From contig MU053561.1 in assembly GCA_013239625.1 (NCBI GenBank), forward strand, positions 2,558,283 to 2,622,282: a stretch of DNA of 64,000 bases, in the 5' to 3' direction. Below are positions 621-54,797 of this stretch, in pieces (the first letter of the stretch is position 1; each line of letters begins with the position of its first letter). Below the pieces are notes generated by a model that was not told the origin of the DNA, did no database searches, and saw only the letters and a program-made list of their open reading frames with translations. Position numbers and translations under genes: made by a program. Source of the DNA: Lama guanicoe. Its lineage: Eukaryota.

Positions 621-1039
621 CTAATGAGGCAAAACACACAAAAAACCAAGGTTGTGAAAATCCATTAAAACCAGAGATGTATTTGTTTTCAGTCCAAGAA
701 AACATCTTACAACCGTCTGATACTGGTTTTGAAAGGTCGCCTGAAACCAATGACTCTCGGATGTAGTAATTCTTTACTGCACACACAGCACAGGATATTT
801 ATGAGGGCTGAGAAGTGAGAGAATACAGATGTCACGGTAACCAGAGGGCATGCATAGATTTACTCTTTTAACTCAACTGAAATGGAAACACTGATCAGCA
901 AAGGCTCCTCAAATCAGAAAAAAGGAGATAACCAGACATGATGTGTCCCTAATGGGGAGCCATAATATAATCTATGAAGTAAAAAAAATAAAAACAAACA
1001 AAAAAACCAAATAAGCCAAATCAAAACAAACAAGAACTA

Positions 1040-1605
1040 ACCCGACTCTGGTCAAACCTCTGGATCCAATTACCAATTCACCGGAAATAAAAACAACAGA
1101 GGAACACATAAAACTAGACCATGGGGATATAGTCTGTAAAGTCTTCAGAGTGGGAAATGCAATAAGACAACACCTTGACTCCTTTAACAAGGAAATCACA
1201 AGAGAGAAAAAAAGATTGGTGGCAGGGACCTACTTAAGAGACTTAAAAGACATATCAATCAACAGCAATTTGTGGGCCTTATTTGGATCGTGACTTAAGC
1301 AAAATAACAAAAGCTACAAGAAAATAAACTATTTATAACATTTATGAATCAACCAGAAGTCTGTACACAATTGGTTAAAAAAAGAGAGTCCATACCTTTT
1401 AGAGCAACAAACTGAAATATTTACTGGAGAATGACACTATCTGGGATCTGTTTCAAAATACGGCAGGAGTTGGGCGGTGGAGTGGGTAGGGTATATATGG
1501 AACAAGATTAGCCACGAGTTGGTGACTGTTGAAGCTCATGTGCTGCATTATTCTATCCTGTCTACTTTTGTATATATTTCCAATGTTCCATTAAAACAAA
1601 AAAAG
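1040..1605 (+). mobile_element. Old L1M 3' UTR fragment
   Basis: TTAAGAGACTTAAAAGACATATCAATC...GGAACAAGATTAGCCACGAGTTGGTGACTGTTGAAGCT...TCTACTTTTGTATATATTT. Confidence 0.6.
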
Positions 1606-2177
1606 ACTAATACAGACTTACATCCCAGTGCAAGACAGTTCCTGCTCACACAAACACTACCTACACTCCAGCTATGCAGAAATGGCTACACTGTGCCATT
1701 CCCAAACTAAGCCACGCACTCTCCATCCTACCAGACTTTGCATGTGTACCACCCTCCATCCAAAGGATGTCCTCCTATCCCTGTTTGCCCACCATCTACC
1801 CCCATCACCGCTCTCAAAGTCCAAAAGGGCCCTCAACAGCCAGTTCAAGACATACTTCCTTTGCACGGTTTTCCCACGTTCCTTGCCCTGTTCATCCATC
1901 GTACTGCTTCTGTATTTTTGTTGTATTTGGTTGTATTACACTAGTGTCTGCCTGTGTGCCCAGCTATATATTCACCAACTAGAAGGCAATCACTATATTT
2001 GATTTCTTCATTCTTAACTATTCCTCGCCCTTTGTACATAATAGTTAAGTACTGCTGGATTAAACAGAACCAGCTGATTTTTCCCTTACCCCAAATGACT
2101 CCTCAAAAAACATTTAATCAGTTAAATAAGAGCTTTTACAATGCATAATTTGAGTGTTTAAATGGGTAATACACTCA

Positions 2178-2346
2178 GGGGGAGGGTATAGCTCAGTGGT
2201 AGAGAGCATGCTTACTTAGCATGCTTGAGGTCCTGGGTTCAATCCCTAGCACCTCCATTAAAAAAAATAAATAAGTAAACCTAATTACCTCCCCACCTCC
2301 AAAAAAGAAAATAAACTGTACAAAAGTAAAATAAATGTTCAAAATA
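2178..2346 (+). mobile_element. tRNA-Ala-like SINE
   Basis: A/B box head, ACCTAATTACCTCCCC tail, degenerate TSD AAAT(G/A)GGTAA..ACTCA. Confidence 0.9.
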
Positions 2347-3085
2347 AATAGGTAACATACTCAATCAGAAAGTATGCAATGGCACTGAAAAGCACCTCCT
2401 TCCCTGTCTGCTTACTTCACATGCCCTGACATAACCATTTCTATGGGTTTTTTGTTCGCCTTTCCAGATGTTTTTAATGCATATTCAGATCAATATATTT
2501 TATTTCTTCTTTTTCTACTCATATGGATACCATAGCATACATATTACTAAATACTTGTTTGCTTTTTTTTTTCCTTAATGTCTTGGAGACATTTTTATAA
2601 AAACATACACATAAAGGATTTCTTCATGTGTGTGTATGTGTATATATTTTTTCTTTTTTTTTTTTTACAGCTGTATAGTTTTTTTACATAGCCAGTTTTC
2701 CACTATAAGGATGTTTCATTATTTATGTAACCAGATCCCTCTTGATGGACAGTCTGATTGCTTCCAATCCTTTCCTATTAAAAGCAATATCACAGTGAAT
2801 AACCTCTTGTATGTCATTTCGCATGTATTTTAATATATCTGTAGGGCAACTTTCTATATCTCGTACTGTGTGTATTATGGCCTTCTCCGCTTTTCTTCAT
2901 CAATTAGCTTCTGGATTTTATTTATTAGTTCTCCTTTTGTTGCTTTCTAACTCGTTAAATTCCATTCTCCCTGCATTAATTCCTTTCTTGTGCTTTTTTT
3001 CCATTTAATTTCTTGCTCTTTTTTGAACTTCTTAAATTAGTCCTGTGATCTACAACATGAATCATAACAGTCTGAGTCCTAACTC

Positions 3086-3492
3086 AAAAAGAATCCTGAG
3101 CACAACATTGTAAAATGATTATAAATCAATAAAAAAAGTTAAAAAAAAAAAAAAAGAATCCTGAGCACAACATTGTAAAATGATTATAAATCAATAAAAA
3201 CAGTTAAAAAAAAAAAAAAAGAATCCTGAGCACAACATTGTAAAATGATTATAAATCAATAAAAACAGTTAAAAAAAAAAAAAAAGAATCCTGAGCACAA
3301 CATTGTAAAATGATTATAAATCAATAAAAACAGTTAAAAAAAAAAAAAAAGAATCCTGAGCACAACATTGTAAAATGATTATAAATCAATAAAAACAGTT
3401 AAAAAAAAAAAAAAAGAATCCTGAGCACAACATTGTAAAATGATTATAAATCAATAAAAAAAGTTAAAAAAAAAAAAAAAGAATCCTGAGCA
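3086..3492 (+). repeat. Tandem array, 6 x 65 bp, unit = TSD + L1 3' terminus + A15
   Basis: GAATCCTGAGCA recurs at 3091, 3156, 3221, 3286, 3351, 3416 and 3481; unit core CACAACATTGTAAAATGATTATAAATCAATAAAA matches the L1 end at ~16258-16296. Confidence 0.95.
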
Positions 3493-5864
3493 GGTCTTGA
3501 CTGCTCCGATGCCATTACTTCACTTGGACATAGAAGCAACGATAACAAGTCCCAAGTGGACAAGTAAGTATTCCATAAAACTCACATTAAAAAGAAAACA
3601 GGACCAGTCACTCATACAAACTCACAATTTTCCCATTCATGCTCACAATCTTTAAAAACATTTATTAGTCTCCTTAATTCTTACTGCAATAGGCCACTAT
3701 ATTGAACACAGAGTTCGGCAAATTTCTGAAATGCCTTGAATGCACAAAAATTCAAAGTACTGGCTACTTTTAGGGAGTCCTGTTACTTATGGAAATAAGA
3801 CAAGAACAAATTGCTGCTGTTGTTTAAGTGTATCAAGTATCTGAAATCTTCACCGAAAGAACGTTTTATAAATAGAATCTATTTTAAAATCCAAGCCTCA
3901 GAGACTTTCGGGAGAAGGGTAAGATTTGGAAAAAGGGGGAAGAAAACAATACATTCTGAGCATTTACTGTATGCAAGGTACGGTGCTCAAAATGCTTCCA
4001 CTCACGTCTTTATTAAAATCAATCTGGATGGGCTTCTCTGTTTTTAGGATAAAAAATTTGTTATGTTTACTAAATTGTAAAATCAACAGAGAAAGCAGTG
4101 GAAATATATTCTCATAGAGAAACCAAACATTGATTCTTATAAAAAAGAACATAATTTCTGTAGTATGTTCATGAATTATTTTCCAGGACATAGGCTATGA
4201 ACAATAATGATGAAGAAATCAGTAGCGGTCATTCAAGGCCAAGTTCAAGTCTCAATTCCTCCCTTTTCTCAGTAACTTTCATCAGCCTTAATCTCTTACT
4301 CTAGGTCTTACAGTCACAGAAGCACCTAGCATTTGACCACACCCAATTTTGCATTCTAACATGTGCAAATCCAACAGCTTGTCGATCTTTGTGTGTCTCT
4401 TACCCCAACTGTGTCACAGGGCCCTTAGGAGTTAAAGGTTCACTTCTTTATAGGCAGCAATGGAAAAACATAAAGCTAGATTTCTACTTCATTCTTTGAC
4501 ACAAAAACTCAAGATGGAGCAAAATGAAAATGTTAAAAAAAACTGTAAATGTTCTAGGAAAAACACAGAGGTGAATATTTTTGCAATCCTAAAGCGAAGG
4601 AGAATGACAAATTCCTGAGGCTGAGAGATAAAGGATTTAGTAATTTGACTACATAAAAGTATTAAACTTCCATATAGTAAAAATATTATAGGCAAAATAG
4701 TAACACAAAAGGCAAAGTGGGAAAAGTACTTGCTATGCATATTATAAAGGGCTAATATCCTCTCCCTCCAAGGATGACTTTTTTATAGCTCAGTGCGTGA
4801 CACTCTACAGCACCCAGTGAGAGCACTGGCTTTATTGAGTGGGCTTCTTCATGGGCTGGTGAGGCCTGAGGTCCTTCTGCATGGGTCTGGCTCACACCCA
4901 GATACACCTCTATGTCATTATCTTAGACAATCATGGTTGGGTTAGGTAATCTGCATGCCAATTTGACTCAGTAACCAACCACATAAGGAGCTTCCCAGAC
5001 ATGCAAAGATCCAAGTGTTATCAAACATAAAGTATTCTGAGCATCCCACCCCAACCAGTTATTTAAAGAACTAAAGCTTGTTTTACTCGACAGACAAAAG
5101 AATATTTCCATCTATTCTGACCGCATATCCTTGAGAATAAAAGTTGAGAGACAGAGGGAGAGAGATTGAAAGAGAACATGAACTCAGGAGCCAGATGATA
5201 ATGTCCAACATTTGTGTATCAACACGCACCACATCATTTACATCAGGGCAAGAGTTCTTCCCTCTGGTTCTACTGAGAGGCCATCATGGTTTTCTTCACT
5301 GCCCATAAACAGAGGGTCTTGGCCAAGGGGTCCGTCAAATGCTGGTGAGTGGTACATCTGGTGTTTAAGTTAGAGAACTGCACACAAAAGCAGCTTCACT
5401 CCAAAGTAAGAAAAATGGGCACCTTAGTCTTACTTCAGTGTGTACCTCCCCTCCGTTACGCTGCTACCCGTCTCCTAGCTAGGTTACACGTTAAACATAG
5501 TGATAGTAATTCAAAGATGTAAAGTACTTTAAGTTCTTGAGAAGAAAACCTAGTTGAAGGGAAGGAAAGGCTGTACTCCCTGATGTCATTCTCCAGAGGA
5601 GGGGTTCTGGCGAGAGGCCCTACTGTCTGCTCAGAAGGTCATCATCCATAGAAACATGACCTACTTCTGCTTAAATTTCCAGCCTGTACCGCCTATCAAG
5701 GTACTTGTTGGGTTTTTTCTTTTGTTTTGTTTTGTTTTGTTTTTAATTTGTTGTGTGTTACAGAACTACATTTTACTTGTCCTAAAGCAACCTTTTAAAG
5801 CTTTAGTAAGTACCTCTTAATAAGTGTTCTAGATTTGGGCTAAAAGAAATACATTTAGCATTCT

Positions 5865-6000
5865 TTTTCTATTTTTTTGTTTTGTTGTGTTTTTTTTTAT
5901 CAGGTTTATTTATTTATTTATTTAATGAAGGTACTGGGGACTGAACCCAGGACCTCATGCATGCTAAGCATGTGCTCTACCACTGAGCTATATCATCCCC
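5865..6000 (-). mobile_element. tRNA-Ala-like SINE
   Basis: GGTACTGGGGACTGAACCCAGGACCTCATGCATGCTAAGCATGTGCTCTACCACTGAGCTA. Confidence 0.9.
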
Positions 6001-7025
6001 TGCTTTTACTATTTTAGAATAATGATCACCTCTCAGGCTCATCTACCTAGTCTGAAGAAAATTAAAGACAAGTTCTCAAAATTCTACCTTCAGCCTAGAC
6101 CTTTTTTCAGAGCTGCACACTCATTTTTCTAGCTGGTTTCAGACATACATAAGACACAATATATCCACAGCTCTACCTGTAAGCCACACATCTCAGTCCT
6201 CTACTGATGTTACCTTCCCTTCCTTGTCTTGCCTAATGGTAAACTCATCACCCATAAACCCCACCTTAGCAACCATGTCCTGAGCACTGACCACATGCCA
6301 AATGCCAGGCTAAGGGTATCACACACATGACCTCACCGAACCCTCAAAACCCAGGGAAGTGGGGGCCACTGTGATCACTATCCCAGGGGAATAAATGGAG
6401 GAAGGACCATGCTTAAATGTCCTACCAGGAAATGTGCCTCATCAATTCTGTTTTGGCAAGCGTTCTCCAGTCTGCCTGCCCCCAACTCCACCGCCCTGGC
6501 CTCGATCCAAACCCATCTTTCACTTAGAGACGGTGGGTATGCCTGCAGTCAGACCGAGGCTGGAATCCCAGTGATGCCACGTCATAACCATGGGTCCTGG
6601 GATTGACCCCTTTTCTAACTTCTCTAAATGTTTCCTCACCTGTGTGTAAAACAGGGGTACTGAAACCTATCACAGCAGATTCTGTGAAGACAAGAGGCAA
6701 TGACTATGCCACATAGTAGGCATTCATTAGTAGCTATTATCTCAGTGGGCTCCTTGCCTCCACTGCCTTCACTTCCTAATCTAACTTCCCTAGTTCTTCT
6801 CCCCCGCCCCATTCTATTATTGCAAATCGAATCAAAAACTCTTCAGGGACTTCCTACAACACAGGCAATATTTCTATATGATACAGGGCCCCCAGTCATA
6901 TATAAATGGTTTTAGGTGTCAGGACATCCTAACTTCATGCACTAGAGGCTTACCGGCCACGCTGTACTAGCAGAAAACAACAGAAAAGTGAATTATTTAA
7001 AAATTCCATTTATAACAGGGTCACA

Positions 7026-7162
7026 GGGGAGAGTATAGCTCAAGTGGTAGAGCGCATGCTTAGCATGCATGAGGTCCTGGGTTCAATCCCCAGTACCTCC
7101 TCTAAAAGTAAATAAATAAATGAACCTAATTACCTCCTCCCTGCCCAAAAAAATTATTAAAA
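7026..7162 (+). mobile_element. tRNA-Ala-like SINE inserted in an old L1 ORF2 fragment (~6960-7445)
   Basis: Full head and tail; TSD AAAAATTCCATTTATAACA(G/A)GGTCA at 6999-7023 and 7163-7187. Confidence 0.92.
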
Positions 7163-7791
7163 AAAAATTCCATTTATAACAAGGTCAAAAAACAGAAATG
7201 CTGAGGACTAAATTTAACCAAAAGGGTTATAATGAAAACTATTCAACAATGCTGAAAGAAATTTTAAAAGTCAAAAATACACCATGCTCATGGACTGGAA
7301 GATCAACACTGATGTCAGTTCTCCCCAGATCGATCCATATAGATTCAATGTAATCCCAGAGAGGTTTTTCTGAGGAAATTTTAAAAGCTGATTCTGCATT
7401 TTATACGGAAATATAAAGGACCTTGAATAGCCAATCTTGAAAAAGACATTTTTAGACATCACCTCATTCTACTACCAGAATGTGAAAGTTGACAAGTTAG
7501 TGCAAGTGAATGACTACTGCTGGACTGAGGTTACCGGCTACTGGAGAGCTGGAGAGGGAGGGAGGCGGAGAGTTTATCTGGAAATTAACCAGAGGTCAGG
7601 CTTCTCAGATTAACCAGTTGCTTAGTGGTTAGGAAGTAACAGCCCAGAAGACATTCAATACATATAGAAACACCATCCATTTATGAATGACTTTTAAAGA
7701 ATAGTCAATCCAAGAAACCACCCAACTGTAACTCATCCAGGCAAAGAAAGAAAAAAAACAAATACACTGAGATGTTCTTTCAGACACTTAC

Positions 7792-14790: not shown

Positions 14791-16448
14791 CATTTATTTT
14801 ATTTATTACTTATTTTAATTATTTATTTTACTTCTCTTTTTTTCTTTTTTAAAAAAAATTTGGGCATGGGGGAGGTAATTAGGTTTACTTATTTTTCCAA
14901 ACTTTTGGTCAACTCATCTTCGACAAAGGAGGCAAGAATATACAATGGAATAAAGACAGTCTCTTCAGTAAATGGTGTTGGGAAAACTGGACAGCAGCAT
15001 GTAAAACAATGAAGCTAGAACACACCCTTACACCATATACAAAAATCAACTCAAAATGGATTAAAGACTTAAACATAAGACAAGATACAATAAACCTCCT
15101 AGAGGAAAACATAGGCAAAACATTATCTGACATACATTTCAAAAATTTTCTCCTAGAAGAAATAAAAGCAAGAATAAACAAATGGGACCTAATGAAACTT
15201 ACAAGCTTCTGCAGAGCAAAGGAAACCAGAAATAAAACAAGAAGAAAACCTACGGAATGGGAGAAAATTTTTGCAAGTGAAACCGACAAAGGCTTGATCT
15301 CCAAAATATATAAGCAGCTCATACGACTCAATAAGAAAAAAATAAACAACCCAATCCAAAAATGGGCAGAAGACCTAAACAAGCAATTCTCCAAGGAAGA
15401 CATACAAATGATCAAAAAGCACATGAAAAAATGTTCAATATCACTAATTATCAGAGAAATGCAAATCAAAACTACAATGAGGTATCACCTCACACCAGTC
15501 AGAATGGCCGTCATTCAAAAATCCAAAAATGACAAATGCTGGAGAGGCTGTGGAGAAAGGGGAACCCTCCTACACTGCTGGTGGGAATGCAGTTTGGTGC
15601 AGCCACTATGGAAAACAGTGTGGAGATTCCTCAAAAGACTAGGAATAGACTTACCATATGACCCAGGAATCCCACTCCTGGGCTTGTACCCAGAAGGAAA
15701 TCTACTTCAGGATGACACCTGCACCCCAATGTTCATAGCAGCACTATTTACAATAGCCAAAACATGGAAACAACCTAAATGTCCATCAACAGGTGACTGG
15801 ATAAAGAAGATGTGGTATATTTATACAATGGAATACTACTCAGCCATAAAAACCGACAACATAATGCCATTTGCAGCAACATGGATGCTCCTGGAGAATG
15901 TCATTCTAAGTGAAGTAAGCCAGAAAGAGAAAGAAAAATACCATATGAGATCGCTCATATGTGGAATCTAAAAAACAAAAACAAACAAACAAACAAAAGC
16001 AAAGCATAAATACAGGACAGAAATGGACTCATGGACAGAGAATACAGACTTGTGGTTACTGGGGTGGGGGGCGGGGTAGAGGGTGGGAAGGGATAGACTG
16101 GGATTTCAAAATTGTAGAACAGATAAACAAGATTACACTGTATAGCACAGGGAAATATACACAAAATGTTATGATAAATCACAGAGAAAAAAATGTGACA
16201 ATGAGTGTGTATATGTCCATGTATGACTGAAAAATTGTACTGAACACTGGAATTTGACACAACACTGTAAAATGATTATGAATCAATAAAAATGTTAAAA
16301 AAAATAAAAAAATAAAAAAATAAAAAAAATTTGGGCATGGGGGAGGTAATTAGGTTTACTTATTTTTTAATGGAGGTTCTGGGGATTGAATCCAGGACTT
16401 CAAGCATGCTAAGCATGCGCTCTACCACTTGAGCTATACCTGTCCCCT
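14791..16448 (-). mobile_element. tRNA-derived SINE split by the young L1 (tail 14791-14896; head 16322-16448)
   Basis: T-rich tail + GGGGAGGTAATTAGG left of the L1; GGGGATTGAATCCAGG...CTCTACCACTTGAGCTATACC (reverse-complement B and A boxes) right of it. Confidence 0.9.
14897..16321 (+). mobile_element. Young 5'-truncated LINE-1 (ORF2 C-terminus, 3' UTR, A-rich tail) with 46-bp TSD
   Basis: Open frame 14898..15971 ([17 protein letters not shown]...[18 protein letters not shown]...ICGI*), G-rich 3' UTR tract, AATAAA and (A6-8T)n tail; duplicated flanks 14851-14896 and 16322-16367. Confidence 0.97.
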
Positions 16449-28671: not shown

Positions 28672-28807
28672 TTTTTTTTAATTTTATTGTTTTTGGTGGG
28701 GAGGTAATTAGATTTTTATTTATTTGTTTGTTTTAATGGAGGTACTAGGGATGGAACCCAGGACCTTGTGCATGCTGAGCACATGCTCTACCACTACACC
28801 CTCCCCC
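28672..28807 (-). mobile_element. tRNA-Ala-like SINE (left member of inverted pair)
   Basis: GGGGAGGTAATTAG...GGAACCCAGGACCTTGTGCATGCTGAGCACATGCTCTACCAC; flanked by GCAAAAA(A)TTTT. Confidence 0.88.
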
Positions 28808-28831
28808 TCTGCAAAAAATTTTAAAAACACA

Positions 28832-28912
28832 GGGGAGGGTGTAGCTCAGTGGCAGAATGCATGCCTAGCATGCACAAGGTCCTAGGTTCAGTCCCCAGTA
28901 CTGCCATTAAAA
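28832..28912 (+). mobile_element. Short tRNA-Ala-like SINE, head only (right member of inverted pair)
   Basis: GGGGAGGGTGTAGCTCAGTGGCAGAATGC...GGTTCAGTCCCCAGTACTGCCATTAAAA. Confidence 0.88.
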
Positions 28913-51579: not shown

Positions 51580-52935
51580 CTGGAAGCAAAGAAATGATGG
51601 TAACTGACGGGTCCAGCACCTGTCTGACTGGCCTCCTTAGGTGAAGATGGCGCCCTGCCCCGCCACCTGTAACGCACATACTTGGAGTTGCTTTTCCACT
51701 AGCCATCGGCTTTCCCTATTGTCAACAGGAATATTGGCAACTATGTACATACAGTCTATGGAACTCAGCAAAGCTAACAGTTCACTGATGTACTGACCCT
51801 GATTTCACATTTTTAGCATAGGTTTGAACCAGTTTAGCTACTCAGACACAGAGGTTTTAAATGGGAAAAGCACTAGGAGCTAGAAGACCTATATTCTGAT
51901 CCTGTATTTGTCCCTATTTGACTACATGAACTGGAGCAAGTCATTGCACTTCCCTGGCCCTTTCCCTGCTCCTTCATAAAGTTCTAAAAAACCTGTTATA
52001 ATCTATTATTCAGAGCCAAAATGCAACCCTTACAAAAGTTTTGATAACCATCCTACTACCCTACCATTCTCTTCTTCCTCAAAGGAAATCACACAGCCTC
52101 CACTCATGTGAAAGCAACACTCATATTCCACAAGGAATATTTATTGAGTATCTACTCGGCGCTAACCGCTGTGCTGCAGGGTGAGGTGAACGTTCTCTTC
52201 TCATGGCACTTGAGGTGGGTAGGAGAGGGTCATATATAACCACATGAACCAGGTGAGTGCTAATCACAGTGGTGGGGATAGAGCATCAAGAAGGAACAAT
52301 GACGGGAATACTTTCTGAGACAGTCAAGAATGGGTTTCACATAAGAGGTAATATCTAAACTGGGTTGGGAAGTATATGTAGGAGTTTGCTAGGCTGAAAA
52401 GGGGAGGATAAGACATTCTAGGCAAAGGGACAAAAGAATAATTGCAAGGACTATGGCCCTCTCCCCAAAGGTAAATATGCTGGAGAATGGTAGTTTGAGA
52501 ATAATTATTTCCAAGACTTACTTCCTATGATACTCTATGAATTTTATATATATATTAATTACACTAAATGCATTATATTGATACCAGCTCTTCTAGCTAA
52601 GTTAATAGTCTGCGTCCAAGAAGAGACATAACATGTGAAGTCCCCAAGATCTGTCTAATGGCGTTGCATTATCAACCTATGGAGAGCTGTGGGCAAGGTC
52701 TTGGAAGACCACATACTCTAACTCTTCATGACAAAGTTGATTGGAAACATGAATTGAGAGTTTTAGAGAATATGAGATACCTATTTGTGACAAACTCCAA
52801 AATATCAGAGGGGTATGTGGCTCTTTTGCCAAAACAAACAGCACAGTACAAAGCCACGTCACACTGCAAGGCCTTGTGATGAGGGAGACACTGGCTTCGC
52901 AGGGGCTGGCTAGCAGAGGAGGGCACCCAGCTTAC

Positions 52936-53316
52936 CAATGAGATTAGTCTTCGCACTGTAACTGCCATAGTATCTTTCATCAGTGTTGGGCGTGTGACAC
53001 TCATACTCGCCGGAATCCTTCATCTGGAGCTTTGAGATGTGCAGAAAGATCGAGTTACCCCGGACCCTCTCCACGTAGATTTCCCTGCTCCGCACCCTCT
53101 GTGCATACACAGCGTAAGAAAAGGTGGCATCCAGGGTGCTAATGATCTGGATTTCTTGGGCCGGGGCTGTCGGCAGGTAAACAGACCACTGGAAATGCTG
53201 CTCAGAAGGTCCCTGGTAGCCAGTTACGTTGCAGCCGATGCTGACAGGGTAACCTTCAGCTCTGAACAGCGGTCCTTTCTGAACTGTTACTTCTCTCTGG
53301 CCAATGGTGAGCTTAG
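52936..53316 (-). CDS. CD101: CD101 exon 2, Ig-V domain 1 (381 nt)
   Basis: ttgcaag|CTAAGC...CATTG|gtaagc; KLTIGQREVTVQKGPLFRAEGYPVSIGC...DSGEYECHTPNTDERYYGSYSAKTNLI. Confidence 0.96.
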
Positions 53317-54797
53317 CTTGCAAGTAGGAGGAAGAAAGGGAATAAAAAGATTAGTGCTCCAGCTCCCAACGCACCACATTATGTAGTTGCCTTTATTACA
53401 GTTCTAGTAAATGAGATCGCAGGTTATTAGCTATCATCAACTCAAATGTTCAACACCTTCTTCAGGCTGAGGAGCAGTGGAATGGCTTGATGAGTTCATT
53501 GTTTTTTTATAACTTTAACTTCCACAGGAATCTCTAGTCTCTTAAAAAAAAAGTTTAGCTTCATCAATGTAACAGGACCACCTCCACAAAACATATCTGC
53601 TTATCTAAGTGCACCTAAAGTAAATATGATGTATGATAATTCACCACTTCCATTATTTTATGGGAAAATTCGGCATGTACTTCCTCAATTTCTGGATACC
53701 TGTCACTGAGCTCTTCTCACAGAATTGATCGCTAGGGCGGCAAAGTCTATGGCACTGTCCCTGGTGCCATGTTTTTCCTGCTGGTTGGCTGGAACTGTTT
53801 GCAGTTCCTGGCCAGGTCTGATGCAAGACTAGCTAAAATTAGCATCTGAAGACGCAGCAGAACTTCCTTTCTATACTGTGAAGGAGTTTTGGTTTTGTCA
53901 TTTTTTTAGAGTCATTACAGCTTTATTGAAAAGCCTATAAGAGATGGCTGTCAAGTCCAGCAGGATCTGGGATCAGACTGATTTCAGTTGTTCTCTTACC
54001 AAAGGTTTTCAGTTGGGACCACTATGGAATGTGTCCAAATCTCAACCATTTGGTTCAAAGGAGAAAACATTATTCAAAGGTAACATTTCCTTTGACATAC
54101 ACATTTTCAAAAGCAAGACATTTTAAGAAATTAAAATGTGTTTAGCTGACTATACTTCAATAAAAAATAAATTAAATGTATGTGCTTATGTTAATATTAA
54201 AGGCTAGTTTATTTTGTGTTACAGAAAGAACAAAGAACAAATGCAGAGATGCCACAAGGGTGAGCTAGCTCTTTCACTCGGGGCTGAGGGCCCAGTGGAA
54301 AGACATCAGAAGTCCCGATGGGAGCAATTGCTGGAATTAATGGAATTAACAGAAGAGAGTTCATAAGAAGATATGGAAGAAGCAGAGCATCTGTTGAATT
54401 GTCTGAATCCACAAGGACAAAGAATAAAGACCAGAGTGGAAAAAAAAAAGTGAGAGAAAGGGAATAACATTACAGAGACCATAAGGCTGAGTATAGGAAT
54501 CTGGGAATGAGAACAATTCTGATAGGAGCAGATCTACAAAAAAACAGGGAGAAAGGGTAAGTGGTCACCTGATGGAGTCAACTAAAAATACTCACGCAAA
54601 ACTGGAAAACAAACATCCAATCAGCCAACCACACACATTTCCAGTAATAATTTAAAATATACTAGCTTATTCATAAATCCCAGTTAACACTATATATTTA
54701 TATCATATTTCTTGTAATAAGCATCTAGGAATAGCAGTTAGACCATCCGAGAAAATCTGAAAATATCACTTACCAAAAAAATTATACTACAGAGGGA

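Follow-up and report, generated by a model that had tools for sequence, protein, structure and literature searches.

A six-unit, 65-bp tandem array of an L1 3' end and its putative target-site duplication in an intron of the assembled Lama guanicoe genome

Within the 64-kb stretch of Lama guanicoe DNA analyzed here, referred to as the window, a tandem array was identified whose 65-bp unit consists of a 17-bp bracket, 38 nt of an L1 3' end and ten adenines (A10), repeated six times head to tail and closed by a seventh bracket. The array is best read as an unusually compact case of a known route by which transposable elements (TEs) seed tandem repeats, the six copies being documented in this assembly only. 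Most probably, it goes back to one ultra-short L1 insertion, which would have been duplicated between the two copies of its target-site duplication (TSD) and then extended by slippage or unequal exchange.

Structure of the array in the assembled sequence

The 12-mer GAATCCTGAGCA was found seven times, starting at positions 3091, 3156, 3221, 3286, 3351, 3416 and 3481, with all six spacings being exactly 65 bp. Analysis of the window by means of TRF yielded 11 rows, among which the array (3086–3492; period 65, 6.3 copies, 99% matches) reached a score of 800, far above the runner-up with 77. Regarding unit length (10–100 bp) and head-to-tail order, these values are those of a minisatellite (VNTR). 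The features referred to in the following are:

3086–3102, + strand: first bracket, putative TSD of 17 bp, its A5 being shared with the poly-A (hence 12–17 bp); bottom strand TTTTT/GA at the left edge
3103–3140, + strand: L1 3' end of unit 1, 38 nt, with AATAAA at 3128 and A at the variable site (3136)
3141–3150, + strand: poly-A remainder of unit 1, A10, giving A15 when joined to the A5 of the next bracket
3151–3215, + strand: unit 2 (bracket, L1 tail and A10), C at the variable site (3201)
3216–3280, + strand: unit 3, C at the variable site (3266)
3281–3345, + strand: unit 4, C at the variable site (3331)
3346–3410, + strand: unit 5, C at the variable site (3396)
3411–3475, + strand: unit 6, identical to unit 1, A at the variable site (3461)
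3476–3492, + strand: closing bracket, seventh copy of the 17-mer, with unique flank beyond
14897–16320, + strand: reference L1 outside the array, 5'-truncated and young, with an open ORF2 C-terminus; its 3' end (16258–16296) matches the unit
621–7791, − strand: intron 3 of the host gene, delimited by the exon ends

A complete 17-mer bracket stands at the start as well as at the end of the array, the bracket thus being part of the unit, and the first and the last bracket are identical over exactly 17 bp (5 to the left and 12 to the right of the G). The array is therefore framed by one short direct repeat belonging to the unit itself, as described for the Haber–Louis type of minisatellite. All six A-runs are exactly 15 nt long, five of these adenines being the leading A5 of the following bracket. 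Only one of the 65 positions differs between units, following the order A-C-C-C-C-A, whereas all six agree in truncation point as well as in the lengths of poly-A and TSD. The earlier note on this DNA had reported the seven 12-mer copies at an exact 65-bp period, the six A15 tracts and this variant order. All of these are present, and the anatomy was correctly dissected, a confirmation which concerns the assembled sequence and not independent reads.

The GC content of the unit, counted from the sequence, is approximately 18–20%, and the entire 64 kb contain no N. No other array of the (TSD + L1 tail)n kind appeared among the 11 TRF rows for the window. Folding of the array strand revealed nothing unusual (z 0.16; 111 of 200 shuffles were equally stable), which leaves slippage driven by a hairpin without support.

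The L1 core and its bracket

A search against the window aligned unit 1 (3101–3155) with positions 16258–16311 at 90.9% identity over 55 positions (E 9e-13). The 35-nt core without its poly-A agreed with the L1 ending at 16296 in 33 of 35 ungapped positions, compared to 23.2 on average and at most 27 for 300 shuffles, the standard of comparison being the window's own L1 and not a species consensus. More diverged L1 tails, located at approximately 27243, 17650, 37545 and 43670, aligned more weakly to the core. The 362-aa open frame of the reference L1 (14883–15971, no stop) corresponded to residues 912–1274 of human L1 ORF2p in a search of PDB sequences (E 3e-156); a Pfam search of the same frame gave no match. 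In each of four public sequencing runs, the core stood at about 180–225 times single-copy depth, with a summed depth over 3105–3121 of about 184–225 times that of unrelated long contigs. Given such depth, the core is, as judged from its sequence, a high-copy, young L1 3' end, and every unit carries a poly-A tail (A15) at its 3' end. The proposal of the earlier note that the insert represents an L1 tail is borne out by the shuffle comparison, by the ORF2p match of the neighboring element and by the core depth.

Several observations concern the reference L1 and related loci. Its open ORF2 C-terminus, retained in a truncated element, is consistent with recent L1 activity in the lineage. The element (1.42 kb) lies within a SINE-like repeat, between the two copies of an exact 47-bp direct repeat (14850–14896 and 16321–16367), which starts at a TTTT/AAAA site and is well above the usual 10–20 bp of a TSD, and its tail has become an (A7T)n microsatellite of about four units (16296–16328). 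At a different locus, represented by contigs of about 1.47 kb in all four runs, the same L1 tail stands at the contig end after an A-rich stretch resembling the bracket, from which it deviates by one or two other letters and a 3-base insertion. Possibly, this locus represents a further ultra-short L1 insertion with a truncation point close to that in the array.

With exactly 17 bp, the bracket lies within the range of about 7–20 bp for direct repeats flanking L1 insertions made by target-primed reverse transcription (TPRT). At the left edge of the bracket, the sequence of the bottom strand is TTTTT/GA, an endonuclease-type nick site, albeit a short motif that is common in AT-rich DNA, and the left flank, which is devoid of L1 likeness, supplies the A5 after this site. 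TSDs of mobile elements are mostly 10–20 bp long according to PMC12350158, the ORF2p stagger is given as about 12–18 bp in PMC10830420, and TTTT/G is one of three endonuclease cut sites scored in Table 1 of PMC12016303. The bracket behaves like a putative L1 TSD of 17 bp or less, in agreement with what the earlier note had proposed, its anatomy (length and TTTTT/G on the nicked strand) being the basis of this assignment. The deepest 31-letter records match the unit from 3100 onward, one base further to the left than the window's own L1 does, from which it appears that the match at the junction may comprise three letters (GCA) rather than two (CA). Comparison of the modelled empty site with the rest of the window revealed no older repeat matched across the junction.

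Copy number, origin and rival explanations

To evaluate the locus in independent data, 171 sampled words from 2400–4400 were surveyed in runs from five organisms and eight studies. In total, 20 of the 24 listed runs contained between 0.88 and 0.98 of these words, the complete set being found in none of the 20. Before any SNP is considered, the expected share is 0.956 for an empty allele and 0.986 for a one-unit allele; since one SNP removes up to 1.8% of the words, the shares observed cannot separate the alleles. Four of the 20 runs, two of them flagged as possible sources, were compared with 2680–3185 using filtered contig records, with the repeat part (3127–3185) left out. The locus's own flank (2782–3070) had no depth in any of the four, although missing cover in filtered records proves nothing, and neither an empty nor a one-unit allele was encountered in them. 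Likewise, no exact record leading from 3086 into the L1 tail was found among the longest 32 of the 55 records of these runs, whereas a multi-unit allele should leave one if contig graphs behave as we infer.

Relative to unrelated long contigs, the depth of 31-letter records starting at 3098 was 0.89-, 2.69-, 2.17- and 2.38-fold in the four runs, compared to at least 6 expected for a homozygous and at least 3 for a heterozygous six-unit allele. These junction-word depths are a soft limit, as the last two letters were cut, the records filtered and the baseline formed by two or three contigs in each run. By this measure, six units on both chromosomes appear to be absent from all four sampled runs. 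Furthermore, all 31-mers of the six-unit allele already occur in a three-unit A-C-A allele, so that short-read data cannot fix the number of units. The copy number of six may thus be restricted to a single animal or exaggerated by the assembly, and the caveat of an assembly artefact raised by the earlier note gained some weight from the four-run comparison. A single metagenome match to the 21-base right-junction pattern was rejected as a chance hit (55% GC, with only those 21 bases in common).

The preferred origin, one insertion followed by duplication and growth, would have proceeded in three steps. Reading from the anatomy, L1 ORF2p would have nicked the bottom strand at TTTTT/GA and primed on the poly-A, and about 38 nt of the L1 3' end would have been copied before synthesis finished on a match of 2–3 nt (CA, perhaps GCA) with the target end, leaving TSD-tail-A10-TSD. 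The 17-bp copies, then 65 bp apart, could have mispaired during replication or exchange, giving TSD-X-TSD-X-TSD. From this stage on, at least 82 bp of perfect homology would have allowed growth by slippage or unequal exchange; the variant pattern suggests one A-to-C change in an inner unit, which was presumably amplified again thereafter. In a block model allowing duplication, deletion and point mutation, A-C-C-C-C-A requires at least five single steps, and the shortest path found from an A start with one mutation includes duplications both before and after the mutation. Multi-unit jumps would shorten the path, yet in the model expansion on both sides of the mutation remains. Such expansion indicates DNA-level turnover over time and argues against one-shot re-priming by reverse transcriptase (RT), while the single truncation point and the single A15 length common to the six units are expected of copies of one unit. 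TSD-mediated exchange or slippage as the seed, one of the two routes offered by the earlier note, is in line with the route described in PMC3389668; the note's alternative of RT re-priming fared less well, the identical A15 in six units and the C restricted to the four inner ones fitting DNA-level copying better.

Among the rival explanations, an effect of assembly or polishing is unlikely, though the most probable of them: an insertion with fewer units (A-C-A or a single one) would have been written six times through a walk around a repeat loop or a faulty consensus. The identical inner units, the outer two matching each other and the invariant A15 would be accounted for in this way, as would the shared 31-mers of A-C-A, the low junction-word depth and the tandem junction found in 0 of the four runs, for which the junction region 3127–3185 had been left out. 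However, those runs could stem from non-carriers. One unit between 17-bp repeats should give no graph loop at words longer than 17, so that a loop would itself presuppose a tandem allele, and the absence of any N in 64 kb fits a long-read assembly, in which 407 bp would be easily spanned. Clearly less probable is that the bracket is no TSD at all, and that a diverged L1 tail of about 50 nt together with A15 was duplicated by slippage, leaving an incomplete last unit of 12 nt. Incomplete terminal units are a described signature, counted for 159 of 7,276 repeats in PMC3389668, and the bracket loosely resembles the L1 sequence just upstream of the junction, with nine matching letters across its last 12. 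This likeness is weak, being equalled by 946 of 20,000 random 17-mers from the window and by 360 of the 1,568 ending in CA. Extended target–L1 homology as the cause of the early truncation was not significant. In addition, agreement between the unit and L1 words of high depth begins only at 3100, words extending to 3098–3099 being at least 10-fold less frequent than the most abundant ones in three of the four runs, and a left flank free of L1 likeness that provides A5 after the TTTTT/G site speaks against a continuous tail.

In a third scenario, ORF2p would have copied 38 nt, jumped to the overhang, copied the 17-nt target ending in T5, re-primed on the poly-A and repeated the cycle, all within a single integration. 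Template-jump concatemers have been obtained with ORF2p in vitro (PMC10830420), and the geometry would regenerate a T-rich primer in each cycle. Nevertheless, the same re-priming place on the poly-A and the same stop base would be needed six times, and the C in four adjacent inner units would demand a second template or inheritance from the previous unit, which copying at the DNA level gives directly; we consider this course very improbable. If it were true, L1 would be a direct one-step synthesizer of target-plus-tail minisatellites in a mammalian germline, a class which would have escaped surveys with GC and poly-A filters. The least probable of the explanations is that two independent L1 tails entered the same target, as in dimers of R1 or P elements, with the dimer expanding afterwards. 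The two alleles (A and C) within the array would suit such a start, and one TSD does lie between adjacent elements; however, truncation and A15 are the same in six of six units, and mammalian L1 is not site-specific. The route itself is documented in Drosophila and yields exactly one TSD between tandem elements, according to PMC5932611, but the same source describes distinct 5' truncations for independent non-LTR insertions, whereas here the units share truncation, poly-A and TSD length and differ in 1 of 65 positions.

Known systems and host gene context

TE-derived minisatellites are reportedly initiated between short flanking direct repeats, a view attributed to Haber and Louis (1998) and to Jurka and Gentles (2006). 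In the human genome, Ahmed and Liang (2012; PMC3389668) counted 7,276 TE-derived tandem repeats, 601 of them derived from L1, not counting the L1PA set, which was treated separately. Flanking direct repeats of 5–20 bp were given for 300 of the 7,276, which were assigned to the Haber–Louis model, and a start mechanism was assignable for only 6% of the repeats. The model is also presented in the review PMC6947457, TSD similarity is named as a substrate for tandem duplication in PMC9659126, and tandems spaced by TSDs that begin by double insertion were described by McGurk and Barbash (2018; PMC5932611). For Alu elements, recombination between TSDs is extremely rare according to PMC5402677, citing van de Lagemaat (2005), and by analogy this rarity would count against an origin of the array by TSD duplication. 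PMC2831318 covers short retrocopies and, in the part available, adds nothing on tandems.

The array shares with the Haber–Louis minisatellites a retroelement-derived unit of 10–100 bp, a direct-repeat bracket of 5–20 bp, near-identical units and local expansion. In those minisatellites, the repeat involved is mostly a chance one within the element (most often of 7 bp), whereas here the insertion's own putative TSD takes this role and the unit comprises the entire insertion. Arrays of R1, P and hobo in Drosophila likewise show head-to-tail copies with one target copy in between and expansion by unequal exchange; they go back to the double insertion of elements that are long and often site-specific, and extend over kb to Mb, compared to the 48-nt remnant of a non-specific mammalian L1 found here. 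Unlike in such arrays, the one truncation and the one poly-A length of the copies suggest that a single insertion was duplicated. Precise removal of retroelements (van de Lagemaat 2005) makes use of the same homology of 10–20 bp, and a duplication would be the reciprocal product of such an exchange, with the difference that removal is a loss concerning Alus of about 300 bp, whereas the array represents a gain with TSD copies 65 bp apart. Compared to 5'-truncated L1 insertions made by TPRT (PMC12016303 and PMC10830420), the poly-A, an ordinary TSD length, the TTTT/G nick and the short junction match are the same, but 38 nt fall far short of the medians listed there for somatic (394 bp) and germline (1,240 bp) insertions, and the insertion has become a tandem array.

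Whole-insertion arrays of the form (TSD + L1 tail)n in mammals were not described in any title or abstract within the part of the literature covered; the supplement of PMC3389668, which lists all 7,276 repeats, may contain cases. The survey itself applied a 40% GC filter by which the present unit (~18–20%) would have been excluded, and a search for AT-rich (TSD + tail)n arrays suggests itself. The origin of a minisatellite can seldom be observed. In the present case, the seed can be read base by base, the starting homology being made by the insertion itself and the copies being set only 65 bp apart by the very short insert. If reads confirm the array, and if alleles with one, two or three units exist, the locus would be well suited to measuring TSD-driven gain, the counterpart of precise excision. 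Being one presumably neutral intronic locus, it is otherwise of little consequence, and a function is not indicated.

Four exons of the host gene were recognized on the minus strand (9997–9970, 9889–9787, 7878–7792 and 620–554), all with GT/AG ends and one frame kept, which places the array in intron 3 in antisense orientation, the acceptor, at about 2.5 kb, being the nearest splice site and the donor lying 4.3 kb away. Exon 2 encodes a GRF zinc finger (PF06839, E 1.7e-06), and an Ig V-set match was detected further along the window at 52913–53350. We take the host gene to be TTF2, on account of its N-terminus and of the synteny with the Ig V-set gene, which is presumably CD101-like. Within the array, the AATAAA motif was counted six times on the + strand (3128 to 3453), whereas the gene strand is devoid of it. 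The earlier note had already stated the intron 3 position, the antisense placement and the six stacked motifs, with which the exon ends and the motif count agree. Lying on the non-gene strand, the stacked motifs would face away from the gene and indicate no function, and the array is most likely neutral, young and length-variable.

Read on the gene strand, every unit contains a tract of U15, and its bracket includes a single AG preceded by a weak run of pyrimidines; a cryptic acceptor might result. Furthermore, an inverted self-match (74% over 192 positions) was observed at 28731–28912, where two adjacent SINE-like copies lie in opposite orientation and might be able to form an RNA hairpin.
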